From a virus (Duplodnaviria > Caudoviricetes), in IMG/VR virus record IMGVR_UViG_3300013121_000023, positions 1-64,000 of that record: a stretch of DNA of 64,000 nt. One strand, 5' to 3'. Below the pieces are notes generated by a model, which did no database searches, was not told the DNA's origin, and saw only the letters and a program-made list of their open reading frames with translations. The translations under genes and the position numbers were made by a program. Within the stretch, counting starts at the first letter, position 1. Every line of letters begins with the position of its first letter. Positions 7,717-54,138 of this stretch are shown piece by piece.

Positions 7717-8604
7717 ATGCTGAATACAGACGCAATAGACGCCTTTCTGGAAGTTAGTGGTTTGGACAAAACCGCTAGTGCTCTAGATACGGCTAAACAA
7801 CTAGGACACGACGCCGTAGGCGCTATGCGTGCGGGAGTTATCGGCGGTGTTGGAGCCGCCGCCGCCGCAGGTATTCTTTCTGCCGGTGCTACTAGTGCAA
7901 GCGCTCTATACGATGCCGCCACAAAGCATAGAGACTATAAGAATATGATGCAGGCCTTTCCAGATCTGCAACATAGAAATCCAGATGACGTTCAGCGTGC
8001 TTTTACTACTGTCAGGTCTTTTGCTCCGAAGATCACGAAAGACCCTATGACAGCTGGGGCTGCTGTAAATGCTCTACTGCTAGACCCGCAGGCAGCGCAC
8101 GGTTTCGTCGGTGGCTTGACGGACATAGAACGCAAGATACAAAGCCCTGTGCATGAGATGCTTATGCAGGGAAGCTTGCAAGGTATGCGCTCAGGCATGG
8201 AGCATGATTTGTCGTCCAAGAGAGACGAAGCTAGAAGGAAGTTTGATACTTCCATGGCTGACAGGCAGGAAGCCTATCAAGGGTCTCGTGATATAGCTCA
8301 AGCCCTTCTTCAAAGAGAGCGTGACGATCTATCACGAACACACCAAATGGCTATGTCAAATGCACAGCTAGCTCAACAAAAGGAACTATCTCAAGCTCAG
8401 TCGCTTGGTAAGATGTGGTCTGATATAGCACAGATGCAGCATAGAGAGGATATGGCCAGAGACCAGAGGTCAGCGCAAGCAGACCAGCAGGAGGCCAACA
8501 CAAGACTCAGGGCTGCCTTGGATATGCTTTCTAAGCATACTCAAAGTACGGGCGGCAATCTGCACGACCTAGCGCGTAACATACATCGCGGACATGTGCC
8601 GTTA
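7717..8604 (+). CDS. virion (internal/ejection-type) protein (TTA-terminated; standard ORF to 8628)
   Basis: LDKTASA motif, Gly/Ala hydrophobic hairpin, coiled coil; CCG TTA TG overlap with protease ATG. Confidence 0.6.
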
Positions 8605-10286
8605 TGTTCAAATACAGTACATTCATAGGCACAGAAGAACAGCCCGCCTCTATCCCGATATTTGGTCCTAACGAAGACCATTTCGAGAAGACGGCTTCTC
8701 AGCTTGTTATTCTGCCAGCCGTAACTGACTTCATAAAGAAGCTAAAACCTCTTCCTGATTGTCAGTATGTACTGGTTTCGGCTCTGGGCGCGTCTGAGTA
8801 CTACTCGTCTAATGTGAACGGCGATGCCTTCAGTGAAGAGGCTCTTATACACTGCCCAGAAGGTTGGACAGGTAAGCCTCTTATAGACATCGATCTTGCT
8901 CGTGATTGGCCTTATGGGTTTCCTACGTTTTATGGCGGAAACCCATTTGGCTATCATAGGAACAAATCGTCAGACCTATCTTACGGTGGCGTAGAACTAG
9001 CTGTTTGGAACCCTCATATGAAGAGGGTTGAACTTGTGCTCCGCGTAGAGAAAGATAAATGTGTCGCTAGAGGCGGCTCGGGTATATGGGACAAGCTCCT
9101 ACAAGGAGTAGACGTACCTGTATCGATGGGGGCCAAAGTCCCGTGGGATAGGTGCTCCATATGTACAGATATGAAGCTGTACAAAGAAGCGCTCGCTACG
9201 TTTGATAAAAACAAGCACAAGCATCCAGGCATAGCTGTTCTAGAATTTCACAAAAAGCTAAAAGAAAAAAACGGTATCGGTATCAGAGGTATAGCTCCAA
9301 CAAGAAAAGACTACTGCGACCACGCACGCAGTCAGATGAATAAGATTCTGCCCAACGGTAAAAAGGTTTGGGTAGATAATGACTTTCCCAGATTCTTTGA
9401 TATAAGCTTTGTTATCATTCAGGCAGACAAAACAGCTTGGACTCTAGCGCATATAGCAAAAGGTGGAAACAAGACACACTTCTTTATGGGGCTATCAAGC
9501 GATGAGGCTGAAAAGAGAGGTTACGATCAAAGAGCTGATATGTTGCTCGATGTAGACTCTCTTGACAAAACAGCCGCAGATTTGTCTAAACAAGGCGCCA
9601 AGAACAAGTATGCTGAAATCACAAAGCGTGTGCTGCCGAATCCGTTGGCTGCCAAAGCAGCTCCTATCATGGGCAAATCGGAAAAAGATTTGCCGGATTC
9701 AATCATTCGAAAGATAGCCGAGCACAAAGACCTTGATAAAGCTCTGTCTACAGCTGGAAGTGCGGGCATTATATTGAAGCCAAAAGAGTTTCAGCGCGTC
9801 GTACTCATACGTATCGGCGCTGAACCATTGGCTGATGATATGCACAGGTGTTCATGCTGTTTTCATCACAACGATGCTAAGCACAAGATGGACATAGGGC
9901 CGCACAACATAGATGGTCTACTTCGCAGACTACTAGAACCACTCATGGGTATCAGGTCTGCACTAAATCCCCATGTAGATGGTAGGTCTGTAAACATCGT
10001 CCTAAAGGACAGTAGAGAAGTAGAAAAGAAAGCTAGCAGTGTACAAACACCGCTGTTTAACACCATTTCTGCTATGTATAACGGCTATAGAGAAGGTCTA
10101 TTGTCGTTTCTTGACAACGAAGAAAAGCTAGCAGAACATCACGAAACTGAAAAAAGTGCCGGTACCTACTTGTTTTCTCCACTATCTGAGGCGTACTATC
10201 AGTACACCTTCTGGGATGACATACCTGGGAGTGAGCTGGCAGCTATGCCACCGTGGAGAAGGCAACCCCTTCAGGGACCACGATAG
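8604..10286 (+). CDS. prohead (capsid maturation) protease
   Basis: NVNGDAF, GYH, VSMG(+CxxC), FFDISFV..AD motifs typical of phage assemblin-like proteases; lies upstream of scaffold and capsid genes. Confidence 0.7.
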   Translation: MFKYSTFIGTEEQPASIPIFGPNEDHFEKTASQLVILPAVTDFIKKLKPLPDCQYVLVSALGASEYYSSNVNGDAFSEEALIHCPEGWTGKPLIDIDLARDWPYGFPTFYGGNPFGYHRNKSSDLSYGGVELAVWNPHMKRVELVLRVEKDKCVARGGSGIWDKLLQGVDVPVSMGAKVPWDRCSICTDMKLYKEALATFDKNKHKHPGIAVLEFHKKLKEKNGIGIRGIAPTRKDYCDHARSQMNKILPNGKKVWVDNDFPRFFDISFVIIQADKTAWTLAHIAKGGNKTHFFMGLSSDEAEKRGYDQRADMLLDVDSLDKTAADLSKQGAKNKYAEITKRVLPNPLAAKAAPIMGKSEKDLPDSIIRKIAEHKDLDKALSTAGSAGIILKPKEFQRVVLIRIGAEPLADDMHRCSCCFHHNDAKHKMDIGPHNIDGLLRRLLEPLMGIRSALNPHVDGRSVNIVLKDSREVEKKASSVQTPLFNTISAMYNGYREGLLSFLDNEEKLAEHHETEKSAGTYLFSPLSEAYYQYTFWDDIPGSELAAMPPWRRQPLQGPR

Positions 10287-10325: not shown

Positions 10326-11132
10326 ATGACCATGAACCCTTGGTTGGCCGAGTTGCTTGGGGATACAGAGAAGACCGCTCAGCAGGCGCAGGCGCCTGCT
10401 CCCACTCCCGAAGTGGAGAAGAACGCTGAAGCAGAGAAGGTGGCTATGTTCTTGGCCGCCGCTGAAGCCAATAACATCTCCAAAGACCAGATGTTGAAGT
10501 TGGCCCAGGAGAAGCCCGAGTTGGTCAACCAGCTGTGGGAGGCCACTTTTAGCAACGAAGAACAGAAGACTGCCTCGGCTGCTGAAGTAGAGTTGGGGCA
10601 GACCATCGGCAAGATAGCCGCTCAGACATTTGTGGCTGAGTTGCAGAAGACTGCTGCGAAAGACCCTGAGCAGCTAGAGCTGCCGTATTCAAAAGACCCT
10701 TCGGCCTTGAGCAAGGCGAAAGATAAGGCCAAAGAAGTAGGGTCTAAGGCTCTTAAGGCTATTACGGACCATCCCAAGGCTTCGGCTGGAGCTGGCCTTG
10801 CGGGTTTGGCTGCTGGCGGCGCCCTAGCTGCTAAGAGACACTACGATAAGAAGAAGAGCGAGGGCAGTGACGATAAGACAGCGCAGGATGCTGCCGCTGC
10901 TGTTGCTGACCTAAATGAAATCGCTGGCGGTGTTGCCGTAAAGATGGCCGCTGACGCCGGCTTTAACGTTGACGAGGCTATTCTCCGTATTAGCGGTGTT
11001 CTAGCCCTAGGTGGTGCAGCAGTAGACAGCTACGCAAAGACCGCATCTGCCACAGATGGCGACTCGGCTGTTTACATCCGTTCGCTAGAGCTTCTTGAGT
11101 CGGCAGGATATCCTGTTAAGTGGAACGGGTTA
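10326..11132 (+). CDS. scaffold/core-like head protein (TTA-terminated; standard ORF to 11141)
   Basis: About 10 K-x-A motifs, Ala-rich; GAAAGGA RBS. Confidence 0.6.
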
Positions 11133-17790: not shown

Positions 17791-18252
17791 ATGCCGAAGG
17801 TAAACAAGCCCGAGGTGATTTATCCTTCACATGTGTATGCGATTACACCTAGTGGCTATCTTCTTATGAAGAAGGTAGCTGGTAGTACGAAGGTTCTTAC
17901 TACAGCGATGCTGAAGAACGCTTCTGGTAAAAGTAAAAGCATGAAAGTAAACGCAGCTATATCAGCTGTGTCAGAAGTATTGGGGGATGCACCTGATGAG
18001 CTTGTCTACGTAGGCAAAGAGACTGTATGTGTTGGCGAAATTCAGAAAGTGATAACTGGGTTTGTGCTGGGTCTGACGAAGCCGAATCCAGTTATTAACT
18101 GTGAGTGGGTTCCAATGCACTATCTGTACATGCCAGATAGTCCGTTTAAGGTCACCCCTACGTTCAGACAGACGTGGAGCACATTTGGGCCCAGCGTGAT
18201 GGAGCTTGCCCAAATTATACGTCTTAGAAGTGGGACGCACATTTTGGTTTGA
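17791..18252 (+). CDS. hypothetical protein (possibly a degenerate Nudix-like fold)
   Basis: GAGGT RBS; no intact Nudix box. Confidence 0.5.
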   Translation: MPKVNKPEVIYPSHVYAITPSGYLLMKKVAGSTKVLTTAMLKNASGKSKSMKVNAAISAVSEVLGDAPDELVYVGKETVCVGEIQKVITGFVLGLTKPNPVINCEWVPMHYLYMPDSPFKVTPTFRQTWSTFGPSVMELAQIIRLRSGTHILV

Positions 18253-18260
18253 GGTGCAAC

Positions 18261-19640
18261 ATGCTCGACTCATATATGTCTGTTCTTCTAGCTAACGCTA
18301 AGAGGGAACAAGAGCTTGATAAGCTGGCCGCAGAATTGTCCAAGTATCCGATGGACGTTCTGCAAAAGGTTGCAGATAGCAAGCTAGCCCTTTTTTGCGG
18401 TGACACGGATTGGCTAGAAAAGTACAAGAACACGCCTCTCTTGCAGAAAGCCATCGATTTGGCCAAAGCTGAAATCGAACAGGATATGCAAGATGAGAAC
18501 GCCTTTCAGGAAAGTAATCTACGTAGTAATGGCAGGCGACAGATAGAGCTTCAGAAAAGGATGCTGGATATTGAGCTAGCCTCCATGAATCTTCAGCATG
18601 ATGAAGTCCCTGTGTCGCCTGAACAGGTAGCTGGCGACATAAAGCAAGCTAGCGCCACAGCTGCTATCAGAACTGCGCTTCAAAATCCATGGGTTAGGCA
18701 AGCGGCTACAGGGGCACTAACAGGTGGTGTTGGTGCTCTAGCTACTGGTGGCTCCGTACTAGAAGGGGCTGGTATGGGAGCTGTAGGAGGATTGGTGTCT
18801 GGTGGCATAGACCATTTTACAGGTGGCAGCACACCAGCCGTTAAACCGACCCCACAGCCAGCCGGCGCAGCTAAGCCAGCAACAGGTGTTATGCCGGCAG
18901 CTAAACCTGCTACTGGCGCCATGCCTGCCGCGAGACCCCCGACTGGGGCCACGCCAGCTATAAAGAGTCCTACCGGTATGGTTCCAAGTGTAAAGGGCCC
19001 CACTTTGAATTCCGCAGGTATAGGGCCTACACCGCCACCTTCTGCGCCAGCTGTACCAAAAGTAGCTTCGATAGCTGAAAGAATGAAGGTAGCTCTACAT
19101 AAAATGGCAAATCAGCCCGTAGTAGCTGTACCGCCTAGCCAGATAGAGAGCTTTATAAGAAATAACGCAGGTGCTTTGGGAGTCGGTGCTTTGGGCGCTG
19201 GCGCTGGCCTTTACAGTTCTTTGCGTAGGAAAGAAAACCCAGAGGATGAAGACAGTCTTCTGTCTGGTGCTGCAAAGACATTGGGAGGCGGTGCTATCGG
19301 TGCGGCTCTTGGCTACGGTGGACACAAGTATTACAGCGGTATCAAAGAGCTTATGGACAAAGGTATGTCCCCTGGTGAAGCTTTTGATACACATAACAAG
19401 AACCTCTGGGAAGCTGGGTTGAGCAAGGTTACGGACCACGCTTTTGGTCTGAACAACCCCCTACCAAGTCAAGAGCACACATCAGTTGTTAAGCAGCAGG
19501 CACCGCTGCCGTCACAACCTCATCTACCATTTTCTGCTCCGCAGCCATCTGTACATAAGATGCCTGCACAACACGCAGTAGCACCTACTGTTAAGTCTAA
19601 CGTTCTTCAATCTGGTACGAGACATCTGAATATTTGGTTA
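18261..19640 (+). CDS. virion protein with Gly-zippers and Pro-rich repeats (TTA-terminated; fused to next gene in ORF track)
   Basis: K-x-A motifs, ~10-aa AAKPATG(V/A)MP repeats; first TTA at 19638, then ATG at 19653. Confidence 0.65.
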
Positions 19641-19652
19641 GGCGGAACCAAC

Positions 19653-20534
19653 ATGCTTTCTGTCTATGATTTGAAAGTACGTTCAATGAACGTGGACCTC
19701 CAAGAGGTATCTTGGTGCGTCAAAGAGACTCAGTTGGATGTGCTGGATTACAGCTTCCAGATCTATAGGTCTGAATCTGTAGAGGGCCCATTTGACGCAA
19801 TCTCTGTTCCGTTCAAGGATAAGTACCTGTTCATAGACAGAAACATATTTACTGGCAATAGGTGGAGACAGTACTACTACAAACTAGTAGTAACTAAAGA
19901 GTCCGACTCTACTTCTGTAGAGTTTGGCCCTGTTTCTAGTGAGCCAGACCCAGACCTGTATGCCATGGAAGTTCGCAGTCATGCTCAGCTTCTACTTCAC
20001 GAATTTGCTGGGCGAATCTGCTGGATACTCCCTGTCAGAACATTTGGTCAGCGGTGTTCTTGCTACGACAGGCAAATGAAGGCCAAGAAAAGATCTGGCT
20101 GCATAACCTGTTACGACACAACCTTTGTACGAGGCTATTTGCAACCTATTCAAGTAGCCATACAAATAGACCCATCTGCTAAAAGCGAACAAAAGATGGG
20201 TACTGGTTCTTCTCAGCAGTCGAACACTACCGGTAGAATCGGGTTCTATCCAGCCATAAAACCGGATGATTTGATAGTAGAGAAAGAAAACAGACGTTGG
20301 AAAGTTGTATCGGTGTCACAGACCGAGAAGGCACGCGCCAGAATACGCCAGGAATTTCAGCTACACGAGCTAGTTATGACTGACGTAGAGTTCAAGGCTC
20401 CCCTTGTTCTTGAAGACGCGATAACGGATTTGTTCGTCAGCCCAGAGAGAAACTTCATAAACCCTCACACACTTGAGAGTTTTGAAGAGTCAAACATAGA
20501 GACTGTTATGTCTCTGTTTACAGGTAAAAGATGA
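19653..20534 (+). CDS. neck/head-closure-like protein
   Basis: FN3-like N-terminus, CSC..CxxC, PAIKPDDLIVE..RWKV motif; composition differs from upstream part. Confidence 0.6.
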   Translation: MLSVYDLKVRSMNVDLQEVSWCVKETQLDVLDYSFQIYRSESVEGPFDAISVPFKDKYLFIDRNIFTGNRWRQYYYKLVVTKESDSTSVEFGPVSSEPDPDLYAMEVRSHAQLLLHEFAGRICWILPVRTFGQRCSCYDRQMKAKKRSGCITCYDTTFVRGYLQPIQVAIQIDPSAKSEQKMGTGSSQQSNTTGRIGFYPAIKPDDLIVEKENRRWKVVSVSQTEKARARIRQEFQLHELVMTDVEFKAPLVLEDAITDLFVSPERNFINPHTLESFEESNIETVMSLFTGKR

Positions 20535-21849: not shown

Positions 21850-24800
21850 ATGGCAGACGCTCAGATTGCGCGCCCAGGTGTAGAGGTAGTGCAGGTTTTC
21901 GAGGCCGCTTCACCAACGGTCATCGTTCCTACACTACCGGCCTGCATAGTTGGTGTAGCGCGCCAGGTTGTTGATGTAACCAAGCAGTCGGACAGTGGCT
22001 CTACGGAGCTAAATCCAGATGCTTTGGTTTCTATGGTCGCTGAGGCTGTAACAACGTCTAACAGCCCATATCCGTTTGGTGGCAGAACAATGGTTCTGTC
22101 AATCAATAACGGTTCAGATGTTTCTATCACCTTCAGCGGTTCTGGTGGTAGCAACATGACTGCCGCCAAGATTGCCGAGGAAATAAATGCGGCGCTAGCA
22201 GACCTAGAAATAGGTGATGCTGTAGCAGCCTCGTTTGATTACGGCACGTCTAATACGCGCCTGAGAATAAGGACCACGAACACAGGCGACTATGCGTCGT
22301 TGATGTTCAAGACTGGTACGCACTCGTCGATCACCACTGCTTTTGGTGTTCCGATTGATTACGAGTACACAGGGTTCTCGAACTATTCTCAGTACAAGAG
22401 AACTGTCCCTCAGAGTGACTTCCCAGATCCTAGGGGCAATCTGGACCAGCTAGTTATGGAAGCAGACAAGATAAGGGTCTTCCTTTATCTTGGTTCTGGG
22501 GCGACGTTGACAGAGCTAAAGAGAAATGAAGCTCTGTTGATGCGCGGCACGTATGCCAATGTTGTCGGCACCGTAGACATGACTACTGTCGGTCTATACG
22601 GTGGTGGCGGTACGCTGGATACGAAGGTCATCACGTTGAGCGTGAATGGCAGCGCTTCAGTATCCATCACTTTCTCGGCACCTGCGAACTCCGCTGCTGT
22701 ACTGGCTGCCTTTAACTCGCAGCAGGTTCTAGCAGACGCCGGCTTGGTAGCTTCGCTAGAGGCCACCACCAACTACCTAGTATTGTCGGCTACCAAGGCT
22801 TTTGGTGCTGATGCTACTATCAACATTACTGCCGGTAACGCAGTAACAGTGCTTGGTCTGACAGTAGCCAACAACACTGGCGATAATGCTGTGGTGGCTA
22901 GCGATGATAATAGCGGTGATAACCTAACACCCTATCTACAGTTCCTAGGCCACGACTTCACAGCGGCTGCTGGTTCTGCGATTGTTCGCGGAACAGTAGA
23001 CATGACGGGTCTCACCTTTGGTGATGTGGACGGCACTACACTTACGCTGAGCGTGAATGGTGCTCCCCCACAAACGTTGACCTTCCCGGTTGTTGCTAAC
23101 GCTGCGGCGATCAATACTGCCATCAACAACTTCTTTACCGGTGTTACTGCCTCGCTAGATGGCAACAACTACCTGCTTCTAACTTCGTCTGATTCTGGTA
23201 TTGAGAGCCAGATAGAAGTGCTGAGCGGTACTGCTGTCACCATGTTCGGTCTAACAGCAGGTACCGTCGCTTACGGAGACCCTTATCTACCTGCTTCTGG
23301 TGATGAGGTTTACGTAGGTGGTTCTTTGGTAGGCACTGTTACCCAGGTAGCTCCTGGCGGTAACGTAAACATCCTGAGAATCAACAAGCAGGTAGCTCTT
23401 ACTTACACTGGTAAGAACTTCTACATAAAGGCTAAGAACCTAGTTTCGCCGTTCACCAGCCGTCCTACACCAAACCTTCAGCTAGATGGGGCCAATAACC
23501 CCATTTTGAAGCATGATGTGGTTCAGGATGTATACGGCAATATCGTATCCACACCTGTAAAGGCTCCTGTTTACGTGTCATACAGGGCTGTCAGGCAGGA
23601 TGTGAGCCCACTAGCTAACAATCCTGGGTTGTTGGCGGTGGACAGCACGACACAACTAGGTTCGTTGCTAGACCCGATCACAACCGAGAACCCGCTAGCT
23701 CTTGGTTTGTACATGGCGCTTGTGAATGCCCCTGGCGTAACTGTGTATGGCGTTGGTGTTGATGCCATATCGGCTGATTCGCCTTATGGCACAGTTGAGG
23801 CTTATTCACGCGCTGCTGAACTTCTAGAGACAGAAGATGTTTATGCTCTGTGTCCTCTTACACATGAAGAGGATGTTGGGCTACTGTTCTTGTCTCATGT
23901 TGTTTCGCTGAGCGAACCAGAAAACAAGAGTGAGAGAATCGTTCTGTTTAACCCGGAACGGCCTACTCATAGACTGGATACTCTGGTTGCGTCCAGCGAG
24001 ACTGGTAACAGCACTGGTACAGCAGACGAGTTTGATACTGGTGTTCTAAATCTGGCTGCTCTTCTACAGGCTCTTGATATAGACCCGACCGGCGTTATTC
24101 CGGTGTCTGATGGTTTGTATCTAGACGTAGGTAGCGACGCCAAGAAGTACTCTGTGTCGGCTATAAGCGGCTCAGTTGTTACTCTTCGTACGTCGTTCTT
24201 GGCTGGGGAGAATGACGATAGCTACTATACGACAGACGCTATACCGGTGACGCTAATCAACGAAGCGTTTTCGTTGAAGGTGCGCGGCGCCGAGCTAGTA
24301 GATGTCAATGACCTCCCTGATAAGGCGGCTATGGCTTCTACTTATCAGGAGATGGCGCAGGGCTACAAGAATCGTAGGTTCTGGCACACGATGCCAGACA
24401 AGGGTTCTGCTGTTCTGTCTGGTCTAGAGCAGGAAGTAGAAGGCTTTTACACAAATGCCTGCACAGCCGGCTTGATAAGCGCGCTAGCTCCTTCGCAGTC
24501 GTTCACAAACTATCCTATCTCTGGCGTAACAAAGGTATCCGGTTCGAGAAAGTATTTCTCGGAGAAGCAGCTAAACATCATAGCTGCTGGTGGTAACTGG
24601 ATATACACGCAGGATTCGGATACTGGTCCTGTTTTCAGTCGCATGGCGCTAACTAGCGACATGACCTCGATTGAGACAAGAACAGACTCAATCACGAAGG
24701 TTGTCGACTACACGGCTAAGTTTATCAGGCTCGGTCTGAAGAACTTTATCGGCAGGTACAACATAACTGAGGCTCTAGTAGATTCTATGAGCCAGGTCTT

Positions 24801-24960
24801 GCAGGGCCTTGTCACCTTCTTGATAGACAATGCAATCTTGCTGGGCGCCAGTGTTGAGCAGATCATTCAGGATGAGGATGTTCCTGATACCGTTCTAGTA
24901 ACGGTTCGTTTGGATGTCCCCTACCCCTGCAACTACATCCGTGTAACGTTGCTGATTTTA
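21850..24960 (+). CDS. tail sheath protein (TTA-terminated; 1036 aa)
   Basis: N-terminal RPGVEV, C-terminal PYPCNYIRVTLLI typical of sheath ends; first in-frame TTA at 24958. Confidence 0.85.
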
Positions 24961-24996
24961 CAAAACCCACGGAAGTTACCTAACATAAGAGGAAAC

Positions 24997-25764
24997 ATGG
25001 CAACATCTCCAGGTGGTACGGTTTCTACGTGGGCTCCATATTACCGCTATGTTCAGGGTGGTATGGTTGACGGCAACTATGTAAACGGTGCGTTTACACT
25101 GATTGCTGCTGGCCCTCCCAGAGTGGCTAATATAGGCGGTTCAGCAGCTCTTGGTAGTCGAATATCGAATTCGAATCCATCAGCCGACCAGCTTGTATAC
25201 CCTCTGGGTATCATCCAGAACATCGGTCTTTCGCAAAATAAAAACTTCGCTCGTATCTTTGAAATAGGTAGTGAGCGAAGCTATTTCATCGGTGGCCGTA
25301 CTGTAGGCCAGCTACAGATGGGGCGCGTGCATTATCACGGGCCTTCGTTCTTGAGAGTGTTGTATGCGTATTACGCAGACAGCCTGTCGCCTACTACGTT
25401 TGAGGCTCTGTTCAATACAGATGGTGGGAAGGCTATGTCCAACCCACACAATGTTTACATACCTCCTGGGTATGAAAACATCTTCTTGAACCTAGCCTCT
25501 GACTTGTTTGGCCAGCCGATTGGTCTTCTGATTTACATCAGAGACATAAGCTTGCAAACACTCGGGGCTATATACGCTGAAGCGTGTGTTGTACCGCAGC
25601 ATAACTGGGGCACAGATAGCCAGGGCGTTCTCATTCAAGAGCAGGTAGGCATTCAGTATGAACGCCTAGTACCTGTCAAGATGAGCGCAGTTTCGCTCAT
25701 AAAGGGCGGTAATGCTGGCGGTGCATCTGTAAGCGGTACGGTCTTCCCAGGCCTCATAGAGTTA
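24997..25764 (+). CDS. tail tube protein (TTA-terminated)
   Basis: AAGAGGA RBS before ATG 24997; IFEIGSERSYF tube-type motif; follows sheath. Confidence 0.7.
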
Positions 25765-25768
25765 GCCT

Positions 25769-26155
25769 ATGGCCGTAACAACACCTACCCAAGTTGAGTG
25801 TTTGCTGAAGCTACCTGGAGATACGGGTCTTGCTCTAGACTCTATCCCTTTCAGCTTCAGCAGCACTTACACTCAGAAATCTGAGTTCGATTCGCAGCTC
25901 ACTGGTTCCGGTACATTCGCAGTTCCTTTTGGTACTGTTGTTTCTCCCGGTGCAAAGGTGGTTGCTATCAAGGTAGATGCTGGTGCTACAGCGCCAGTAA
26001 ATGCCAGATTCAACGGTGGTGGTGCTTCTGGTCAAGTTGAGATAGCCGCTGGTGGTTTTATCATCTTGACCGCACCGTCTCCTACTGCTGGAATCACCTC
26101 TATAGACATCGTTTACACAGCCGATGTAAGACTCAGGGGTTGGATTCTTGGCTAA
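25769..26155 (+). CDS. structural protein, beta-rich
   Basis: Starts 4 nt after the tube TTA. Confidence 0.6.
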   Translation: MAVTTPTQVECLLKLPGDTGLALDSIPFSFSSTYTQKSEFDSQLTGSGTFAVPFGTVVSPGAKVVAIKVDAGATAPVNARFNGGGASGQVEIAAGGFIILTAPSPTAGITSIDIVYTADVRLRGWILG

Positions 26156-36825: not shown

Positions 36826-37195
36826 CATAGGTGAATTTACTGAGTTTGCCGGCCCAGACATACTAAAAGTGGGCCCGTCAGAACTGTTTAGTTTTTCCGG
36901 TGTGCTGTCACTTAACAATGTGGGGCACAACATATATGCCTCGCACTGCAATCTTTCTTTCTTGAGAAAATGCTCGATAAAGAGAGATTCAGTTATTGTT
37001 GACGTTGGACATATATACGTGTGTACTGTTACTAAGCTATCTCTTGATTTTGAATACGATAGATTTTTTACCAGATTTATTGCAACAAATCTGTTTCCAA
37101 ACCATAGTTCAGAAAACGACTCTGCTGTTCCACAGGCCATAGCCATGGTCTTGACCGAGTTTGGAGGCTACGTTGGCAAAGAGAGATGTCGCTAA
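36770..37195 (+). CDS. hypothetical protein (start uncertain)
   Basis: Fills the operon gap. Confidence 0.5.
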   Translation: MSNKQPESKIIVSHQGVDNIGEFTEFAGPDILKVGPSELFSFSGVLSLNNVGHNIYASHCNLSFLRKCSIKRDSVIVDVGHIYVCTVTKLSLDFEYDRFFTRFIATNLFPNHSSENDSAVPQAIAMVLTEFGGYVGKERCR

Positions 37196-38303
37196 GCAGT
37201 ATCAAGACGAGCTTGCTGCTAGGCTGCGAACACAGACCATAGCGCCTCAGAGAAGCGTTCCACCTATACCCAGGTTGAACAGCGAAGTGGTGCCAGGTAC
37301 AACCATGTCAGAACAGGCCATGATGGCGGCTGCTTCTGGCGGTGTACCTAGTAGCTCTATCTTTGATGTAAAACCTCAAGCTGGTCTTCTCCCAAACGAT
37401 GTTCTTGTTCCAGAAGCCAAGAACGATCCAGCTTACAGGCAGGGGGCTGGGGCTGATATAGCCATAAACCAACCAGACCTAGCTCGTAAGCACGGTGTTA
37501 TCAGGGGCGGCAAGAGGTTGGCCCCAGACATGCTTTTTGACAGGTCTGGTCCCCTAGATGGCCCAGTGGGAACAAGAAAGCTTAGCCAAGAGACACAAGA
37601 CAGTCTGCGGGCTTTGGCTGAGTTTAATGAGGCCGCAAAGAAAGCCAACGGACCCACTGAACTTACTGAAGTAAGTGCTAGTAACGATGGCGGCCTTAGC
37701 TCGGCGGCTACAGCTGCTAACACATCTGGTAACAACATAAAGCCTGCTGAAAAAGCACCGACTCTAGAAGAGTTGAAATCGAAGCTAGATGACTTCGATA
37801 TGGACACTCTTCGTACTGCTATGTTGAGAGATATCCTCAACAACGAAGAGCAGCGGTCAATAGTAGAGAAGCGTCTAAAGCCATTGAGCTTGGACAGCAT
37901 TATTATGACTGGGTACGTAGAGCAAGATGTACCTATCATACTCCCAAAAGAGGGAGTCACTGCTGGCTTTATACCTAGATTTAGAAGCGTAGACCCCATA
38001 AGCGACCTCACTATAAAGAGGTGGCTCATGGAAGAAATTTACGGATTGAATGTGTCAGAGCGTTACTACCTGGATAAGTACGCTTTGATGAACATTACCC
38101 TGTCAGTGGTAGCTATAAACGGGAAACATCTTCCAGATCCATACGACGCGGACAAAAAACTAGACCAAAAGCTTTTCTTCACCAAGTTCAATTTCTTGAT
38201 GAAGTACCCAATACACATGATTGCTTCTCTGGGAGTTCATATTTTCTACTTCGATATAAGGTGTAGAAAGCTCTTCGTCGCCGAAGAAATAAAAAATGGC
38301 TAG
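37173..38303 (+). CDS. putative tail assembly chaperone
   Basis: GGAGG RBS before TTG 37173; ends at slippery A AAA AAT. Confidence 0.5.
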   Translation: MAKRDVAKQYQDELAARLRTQTIAPQRSVPPIPRLNSEVVPGTTMSEQAMMAAASGGVPSSSIFDVKPQAGLLPNDVLVPEAKNDPAYRQGAGADIAINQPDLARKHGVIRGGKRLAPDMLFDRSGPLDGPVGTRKLSQETQDSLRALAEFNEAAKKANGPTELTEVSASNDGGLSSAATAANTSGNNIKPAEKAPTLEELKSKLDDFDMDTLRTAMLRDILNNEEQRSIVEKRLKPLSLDSIIMTGYVEQDVPIILPKEGVTAGFIPRFRSVDPISDLTIKRWLMEEIYGLNVSERYYLDKYALMNITLSVVAINGKHLPDPYDADKKLDQKLFFTKFNFLMKYPIHMIASLGVHIFYFDIRCRKLFVAEEIKNG

Positions 38304-53742: not shown

Positions 53743-54138
53743 TAAAATGTATTTCTCTGCTTTCTTTGTGAATTTTTCCCAGAACTCGTCAATGTAGTTT
53801 TGTGTGCCCTCTATATCGTACCACATGGAGTAATCATATTCATCCGAATTAATGCCTGCCAGATTGACGAATGCAATGATGTCTGCGAGAATGCTCAACT
53901 CTAGATTGAACTGTTTACCAATGTTGAGTTCCAACAGGTCATTGCACAATGTCAACTCACGCTCATCCTCAATGTAGTGCAGCAGTGCCTCCTTGTAGTT
54001 CCCCGCGCAGGCGGACAACATTATCACATCTCCGAAATCTTCAATGTTCACATCGCTCTCAAAGCCCTCTTTGGGCAGAGTTGCCCAGACTCTCTTGGCC
54101 ACACTGTGCAGTACCCCGTTAACTTCTTCTGCTTTCAT
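53743..54138 (-). CDS. acidic hypothetical protein (TTA-terminated; standard ORF to 53665)
   Basis: Own promoter motif and AAGGAG RBS; TTA 5 nt before the terminator stem. Confidence 0.65.

Follow-up and report, generated by a model that had tools for sequence, protein, structure and literature searches.

The virus record IMGVR_UViG_3300013121_000023 (Duplodnaviria; Caudoviricetes) is a 177,132-bp IMG/VR genome with direct terminal repeats and a guanine-plus-cytosine (GC) content of 47%. Its first 64,000 nucleotides (nt) make up the stretch analysed here (the window), and our subject is the junction between the tail sheath and tail tube genes in it, where the triplet TTA, ordinarily a leucine codon, is found in the place of a stop codon. 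The phage genome is referred to below as G000, and G001, G003 and the L-numbered contigs are relatives or related loci. Read with translation table 11, positions 21850..25797 of the plus strand form a single open reading frame (ORF) of 1315 amino acids (aa), with no in-frame TAA, TAG or TGA across the junction; the earliest standard stop in this frame, which bounds the ORF, is a TGA at 25795-25797. The sheath part (21850..24957, plus strand) has 1036 codons, contains no TTA in frame and 27 out of frame, and closes with the C-terminus ...PCNYIRVTLLI. It is followed by an in-frame TTA (24958..24960), by a spacer of 36 nt (24961-24996) with another in-frame TTA (24976..24978), six codons on from the first, and by an ATG at 24997 that shares the sheath frame and opens a tube coding sequence of 255 codons (24997..25761). 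Written by codon, the junction reads CGT GTA ACG TTG CTG ATT, TTA (24958), CAA AAC CCA CGG AAG, TTA (24976), CCT AAC ATA AGA GGA AAC, ATG (24997). The spacer also carries two TAA triplets that close the other two frames (24981-24983 and 24986-24988) and a Shine-Dalgarno-like AAGAGGA (24987..24993) upstream of the tube start. The tube gene in turn meets an in-frame TTA at 25762..25764, 4 nt ahead of the ATG of a gene for a 128-aa protein (25769..26155) that ends with TAA and is conserved 3' of the tube in relatives. The original prediction, made from the letters of the window, had described a sheath and a tube fused into 1315 aa by the standard code, with TTA 24958, the 36-nt spacer, the second TTA, the AAGAGGA and the ATG at 24997, and every element of this description was confirmed.

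The letters at 24958, 24976 and 25762 are the same, with zero differences, in contigs of four independent studies: soil 2021, sludge 2019, digester 2023 and one RNA library. DNA nearly identical to window positions 24000-26000 occurs in sequencing runs of 14 studies (2019-2025), mostly from activated sludge and digesters and with two runs labelled soil, and the phage seems to be widespread in wastewater systems. The junction had no blastn match among GenBank phages. No stimulatory RNA structure was found at the junction (folding z = +1.16, no better than shuffles), and promoter- and terminator-like sites there were not above shuffle frequency.

The naming of the two halves was examined by profile and structure comparison. 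Residues 861-1034 of the first half match PHROG 279 'tail sheath' (E=7e-9), and the gene is immediately followed by one with a tube fold, which gives the order sheath, then tube; sequence and profile searches of the sheath against PDB chains returned no match. The second half is matched by 1862 homologues that stand alone, with lengths of about 250 aa, and when it is cut at TTA 25762 its alignment ends 1-3 residues from the C-termini of the homologues. Neither this protein nor 93 homologues matched Pfam or PHROG families, and sequence and profile searches against PDB chains gave no match for the tube; the sole family lead was a neighbouring Atlas cluster in which 11% of the members carry PF26461, and PHROGs gave no match for ten neighbouring genes. 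An AlphaFold2 run on the tube with 30 close homologues was unusable, with a predicted local distance difference test (pLDDT) score of 38.9, and a diverse alignment of 93 sequences was used instead, yielding a model with a pLDDT of 87.1 and a predicted template modelling score (pTM) of 0.81. Foldseek searches with this model returned tail tube proteins only (62 matches at E<=0.001; template modelling score by target 0.6-0.77), the best being the tube of phage 812 (8r5g_C, E=4e-7) and others including monocin MttP, PVC, AFP, diffocin, phiCD508 and lambda gpV. The PHROG 279 match and the tube-fold matches together mean that the labels 'sheath' and 'tube' hold, so that the identities first assigned to the two halves are borne out, and the structure prediction proposed for the tube half gave a tail tube fold.

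The position of the sheath end was compared among relatives, which a single-protein scan of IMG/VR failed to return and an alignment-based search recovered. The comparison covered 80 IMG/VR loci and others, and used the ORFs whose alignment reaches the C-terminus. In all 79 related sheath ORFs compared, a standard stop aligns exactly with TTA 24958. In L002 the sheath ends ...PCNFIRVTLLI-TAG and is followed by a tube gene of 250 aa, and in G003 a TAG lies at offset 0 to the same TTA; about 380 sheath homologues of 940-1245 aa end at residue 1036. A protein covering both halves was sought among 5.8 billion proteins, with 381 sheath homologues, and the only one was the window's own ORF; a conserved sheath-tube fusion in relatives, which the original prediction had named as one of two findings that would speak against it, is thus absent from these homologues. 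At the tube end the picture is mixed, the position of TTA 25762 being occupied by TTA in L003, L087/88, L089, L090 and G001 and by TGA or TAG in L002 and G003. The gene that follows (25769..26155) has 41 relatives, and in 39 of them the C-terminus falls at offset 0. Elsewhere in the genome, eight of 11 TTA ends of G000 lie within -2..+1 of a G003 stop (TGA, TAA or TAG), and all eight that were compared with G001 lie within -2..+5 of a stop there; the swap also occurs in reverse, three G001 genes ending in TTA where G000 has a standard stop. Sheath and tube are almost certainly made as separate proteins. Because they are separate genes in every relative seen and TTA takes the homologous stop position, termination at TTA, or at the least an end of translation there, is required, which supports the original claim that TTA termination is essential at 24958.

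The junction is one of many such sites in G000. Among genes of at least 150 aa (46,561 codons), TTA occurs 0 times in frame, whereas frames 2 and 3 contain it 829 and 393 times, a difference that lies far outside chance, and the same gene bodies use the leucine codons TTG, CTA and CTT 886, 983 and 834 times, respectively. Relatives of 42-49% GC contain 54-167 internal TTA codons per 20-kb locus, used as leucine; since relatives of similar GC use TTA freely within genes, base composition does not explain its absence from those of G000. When ORFs are called with table 11, 41% of their in-frame TTA codons fall within the last 15 codons, a region holding 5.9% of all codons. A model with four stop codons leaves the gene count at 223 and gives a coding coverage of 95.1% versus 96.2%, with TGA used in 78 genes, TTA in 64 (about 29%), TAA in 54 and TAG in 27. 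TTA-ended genes are present in every 20-kb bin and not just in the virion module, and 17 TTA ends form stop-start overlaps of the TTATG or TTAGTG kind. Sixty-two 'internal' TTA codons fall into four groups: those in short, probably spurious ORFs, those 5' of the likely start, those at gene-fusion points and those before terminator-like hairpins. At 19638, 24958, 74024 and 119926 the TTA at a fusion point is followed by a ribosome-binding site (RBS) and a start codon; at 53745, 113380 and 123830 a TTA is directly followed by a terminator-like GC-rich hairpin and T run, recognised by eye, an arrangement of stop plus terminator found at operon ends. Back-up stops after TTA are no closer than after standard stops, and 19 of 60 TTA ends have A or G as the next letter, so that a +1 shift there would meet a stop at once. 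In G000 no gene was seen that would require UUA to be leucine at any time.

Three further table-11 ORFs of G000 are two-gene fusions of the same kind. In ORF 18249..20534 a TTA at 19638..19640 (plus strand) precedes a second gene with its ATG at 19653, and 77 relatives carry this second half as an ORF of its own, about 300 aa long; the C-terminus of the first half is conserved too poorly to place the stops of its homologues. The other two are 72404-74827 (TTA 74024) and 119821-120558 (TTA 119926).

Ending genes with TTA is not confined to this phage. Six other contigs of 61-66% GC from other samples (L003 and L089 from Logan, L087 and L088 from ENA, L090 from JGI, and G001) have tube and other genes that end with TTA and lack a standard stop. 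In L003, L087/88, L089 and L090 (about 65% GC) the tube closes with ...EAA or ...LGS, then TTA, and the next ATG comes 1-4 nt on, while the high-GC frame past this TTA stays open for hundreds of codons; all remaining in-frame TTA codons of these contigs are also at gene ends. G001 (143 kb, 61% GC) has TTAGATG at the tube end, and TTA also where homology to G000 stops. The nearest tube cluster representatives are 'proteins' of 603-895 aa (P0122, P0241, P0242 and P0247; loci L003, L087/L088, L089 and L090), and on the reading of these sequences given here such public 'tube' proteins are artefacts in which the tube ends at TTA and the following genes go uncalled. In a quick tree of tube proteins, G000, L002 and G001 form a group and the L003 group stands apart, both joining an unresolved central node, so that one or several origins of the TTA stop are possible. 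L055 (52% GC), L083 (59%) and L053 (58%) contain 0-4 in-frame TTA per about 6000 codons, with CTA and TTG common; these loci may be codon-loss intermediates or further lineages with a TTA stop.

The translation components encoded by the phage were inventoried. G000 carries ten tRNAs, for Lys(UUU), Val(UAC), Met, Thr(UGU), Ile(UAU), Arg(UCU), Leu(CAA), Leu(UAG) and Tyr(GUA), together with a CUA (amber) suppressor. No tRNA-Leu(UAA) or mimic of it was found among these ten or among 35 relaxed ARAGORN candidates (85% thresholds) in the phage genome. ATA is the most used codon of the isoleucine box in G000, at about 33 per 1000 codons, and a tRNA-Ile(UAU) is encoded. A tRNA set aimed at A-ending or rare codons suggests that the GC content of the host is much higher than the 47% of the phage, and it agrees with a lower-GC phage that brings its own tRNAs for A-ending codons, UUA excepted, into a high-GC host. 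Eight matches to genome contigs were rejected as pointers to the host; they are phage contigs binned into metagenome-assembled genomes of unrelated phyla. A PTH2 peptidyl-tRNA hydrolase domain is encoded at 113077-113361 of G000, and PTH2 is also present in G001 and G003; as G003 reads TTA as leucine, PTH2 was rejected as the specific releasing enzyme.

The suppressor tRNA lies outside the window (135413-135485, minus strand) and has a counterpart in G001 (109393-109464), which adjoins a PTH2 gene whose Pfam match holds one in-frame TAG. In G000 the PTH2 domain starts just after the TAG of ORF 112507-113073, and at its end stands a TTA with a hairpin and T run behind it (113380). ORF 8604-10286, which ends with TAG, is in frame with the next gene (10326-11132, TTA end), with 13 stop-free codons between them; read-through of this TAG would add 281 residues, and similarly long extensions follow the TAG codons at 111276 and 113073. 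These extensions could be due to chance or to suppressor-dependent read-through. TAG is a true C-terminus elsewhere, as in ORF 37161-38303, where nine of nine homologues align.

We propose that UUA serves as a translation terminator, a fourth stop codon, in this phage. The ribosome would end the 1036-aa sheath at TTA 24958, with TTA 24976 as a possible back-up, and the 255-aa tube would start independently from its own RBS and ATG (24987-24999) and end at TTA 25762, the 1315-aa 'fusion' being an artefact of the table-11 reading. The junction would then be one site of a genome-wide sense-to-stop change in which TTA is never leucine and ends about 29% of the genes. That UUA terminates translation here, and that sheath and tube are separate through such a change, we regard as highly probable. 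Its opposite, a genuine sheath-tube fusion with UUA read as leucine and possibly cleaved later, can point to a frame that is open under table 11 and to a tube ATG in that same frame, but it finds no fused homologue among the 381, it conflicts with the exact coincidence of all 79 compared sheath ends with TTA 24958, and it leaves aside the roughly 64 genes that share the TTA-end pattern; a sequencing error is refuted by the agreement of four independent assemblies, and the whole group of fusion, error or pseudogene seems extremely improbable to us. Scarcely more credible is a 'hungry' UUA that drives a +1 shift or a hop, so that the sheath ends a few codons later at an out-of-frame TAA of the spacer. 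The TAA triplets at 24981 and 24986 do close both alternative frames, and rare UUA has been tied to candidate bypassing in a Streptomyces phage (PMC10732093), but the junction lacks a stimulatory structure, an immediate +1 stop is possible at just 19 of the 60 TTA ends, the C-termini of homologues coincide with the TTA itself (offset 0), and the TTATG overlaps argue for release at the codon.

The alternative with the most substance, which we still think rather unlikely, is that UUA is merely unassigned: ribosomes would stall there and be cleared by tmRNA (transfer-messenger RNA), by ArfA/ArfB-type factors, or by drop-off and peptidyl-tRNA hydrolase, and sheath and tube would still be separate. 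In its favour, the phage has neither a tRNA that reads UUA nor a release factor of its own, a PTH2 domain occurs in the phage and in G001, and recoded Escherichia coli is reported to handle unassigned codons by rescue and mistranslation (PMC6207430). The PTH2 domain is not specific, however, as its presence in G003 shows, and a slow and often degradation-tagging rescue would have to serve about 29% of the genes, among them those of the very abundant sheath and tube; the 17 TTATG or TTAGTG overlaps resemble ordinary coupling of termination and reinitiation, and the distance to the next back-up stop is not shorter behind TTA than behind a standard stop. The original prediction had put forward a temporal switch, with UUA as leucine early and as a stop late, which would gate virion assembly. 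It draws on analogy to TAG-recoded late genes (as proposed in bioRxiv 10.1101/2021.08.26.457843) and to the decoding of UUA by bldA in Streptomyces (PMC10732093), and the presence of a CUA suppressor tRNA means that some timed recoding of TAG may exist. Yet no gene body anywhere has an in-frame TTA, TTA-ended genes occur in every bin and beyond the structural module, the phage has no UUA tRNA, and an early reading of UUA as leucine would extend or fuse early genes too. As UUA is not needed as leucine by any gene seen and TTA ends reach beyond the late genes, the switch is without support and appears very doubtful.

With UUA taken as a stop, release of the peptide would be an efficient, factor-mediated event. 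Such release is favoured over stalling and rescue because 29% of the genes, among them those of the most abundant virion proteins and many coupled pairs, depend on TTA. By analogy with known reassignments, the releaser may well be a class-I release factor of the host with widened recognition of the second base, the sub-mechanism to which we incline by a little; the host itself, probably of high GC, would then not decode UUA as leucine. It is a more tentative suggestion, and one we would not put at even chances, that the code change belongs to the host, in the form of undescribed, probably high-GC bacteria of soil and activated sludge that do not decode UUA and terminate at it by means of an altered release factor. 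A UUA stop would stay invisible in such a host because TTA is almost absent there, and would show only in a phage of 47% GC.

Several points weigh against termination at UUA. What is shown is that TTA aligns with the stops of homologues and is missing from gene bodies, that the phage has no UUA tRNA and that the second half has a tube fold; this evidence comes from sequence and predicted structure. The phage proteins contain no RF-1 or PCRF domain, which leaves the releasing factor hypothetical, and the inventory of tRNAs and release factors covers those of the phage. The spacing between RBS and ATG of the tube is short, with 3 nt after GAGGA. The contig from the RNA library is unchanged over the junction, which proves neither transcription nor the absence of editing. 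To our knowledge, no bacterium with UUA as a stop codon has been described.

The closest known systems are organelles, in which UUA as a stop goes with release-factor changes in RF2 or mtRF1a (PMC12574857). They comprise NCBI table 23 (mitochondria of Thraustochytrium and labyrinthuleans), the plastids of peDinoflagellates (UUA/UCA) and the mitochondria of Marsupiomonadales and Pseudoscourfieldia (UUA/UUG) (PMC12574857). The codon and the direction, from leucine to stop, are as proposed for this phage, and the signs are shared: no in-frame UUA, UUA at the stops of homologues, 'fused' ORFs, no tRNA with the anticodon UAA (here within the phage's own set), and a trnL(CAA) kept for UUG. The setting differs in that a tailed double-stranded DNA phage depends on bacterial cytoplasmic translation, keeps the three standard stops and encodes no release factor. 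Recoding in phages concerns stop codons, with TAG read as Gln and TGA as Trp in Lak, crAss-like and other gut phages (bioRxiv 10.1101/2021.08.26.457843). As in those phages, table 11 misreads the genome and calls wrong ORFs, and the phage has its own tRNAs including a CUA suppressor; here, however, the change runs the other way, from sense codon to stop. Genes read with table 11 come out fused or too long where those of recoded phages come out split, and TTA ends are found outside the late genes as well. In Streptomyces UUA is rare and its decoding by bldA depends on growth phase, and a candidate for UUA-induced bypassing exists in a Streptomyces phage (PMC10732093). UUA is likewise nearly absent from such high-GC genomes, its decoding can limit translation and phages of these hosts may exploit it, but there UUA is leucine inside genes, whereas in this phage it never is and it replaces stops at orthologous ends. 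Unassigned codons of recoded or high-GC bacteria, such as UAG in RF1-deleted E. coli (PMC6207430), are comparable in that an undecoded codon halts ribosomes, which could be an intermediate stage of reassignment; they are avoided there, whereas here the codon is placed at a quarter of the gene ends and in stop-start overlaps. In the literature searched, UUA as a stop was found for organelles only (mitochondria and plastids), and no published sense-to-stop change was found for a phage or for any bacterial translation system. The case would be the first of its kind for phages, the phage code changes found in the literature all turning stops into amino acids.

A UUA stop would mean that termination at this codon is within reach of bacterial ribosomes, and would lead one to expect a new bacterial code or else a new mode of ending translation in phages. 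For a test, the sheath-tube junction is the cleanest site, because two abundant virion proteins meet there with no standard stop between them. Artefacts of this code are already present in public protein sets, among them the 1315-aa 'sheath-tube' protein and 'tube' proteins of 600-900 aa, so that gene callers, protein clustering and structure prediction on these phages go wrong in a systematic way at about one gene end in four. If the change does belong to the host, free-living cells would for the first time be seen to use a sense-to-stop genetic code, and within this phage family TTA stops would be taken up or lost by each lineage depending on its host.

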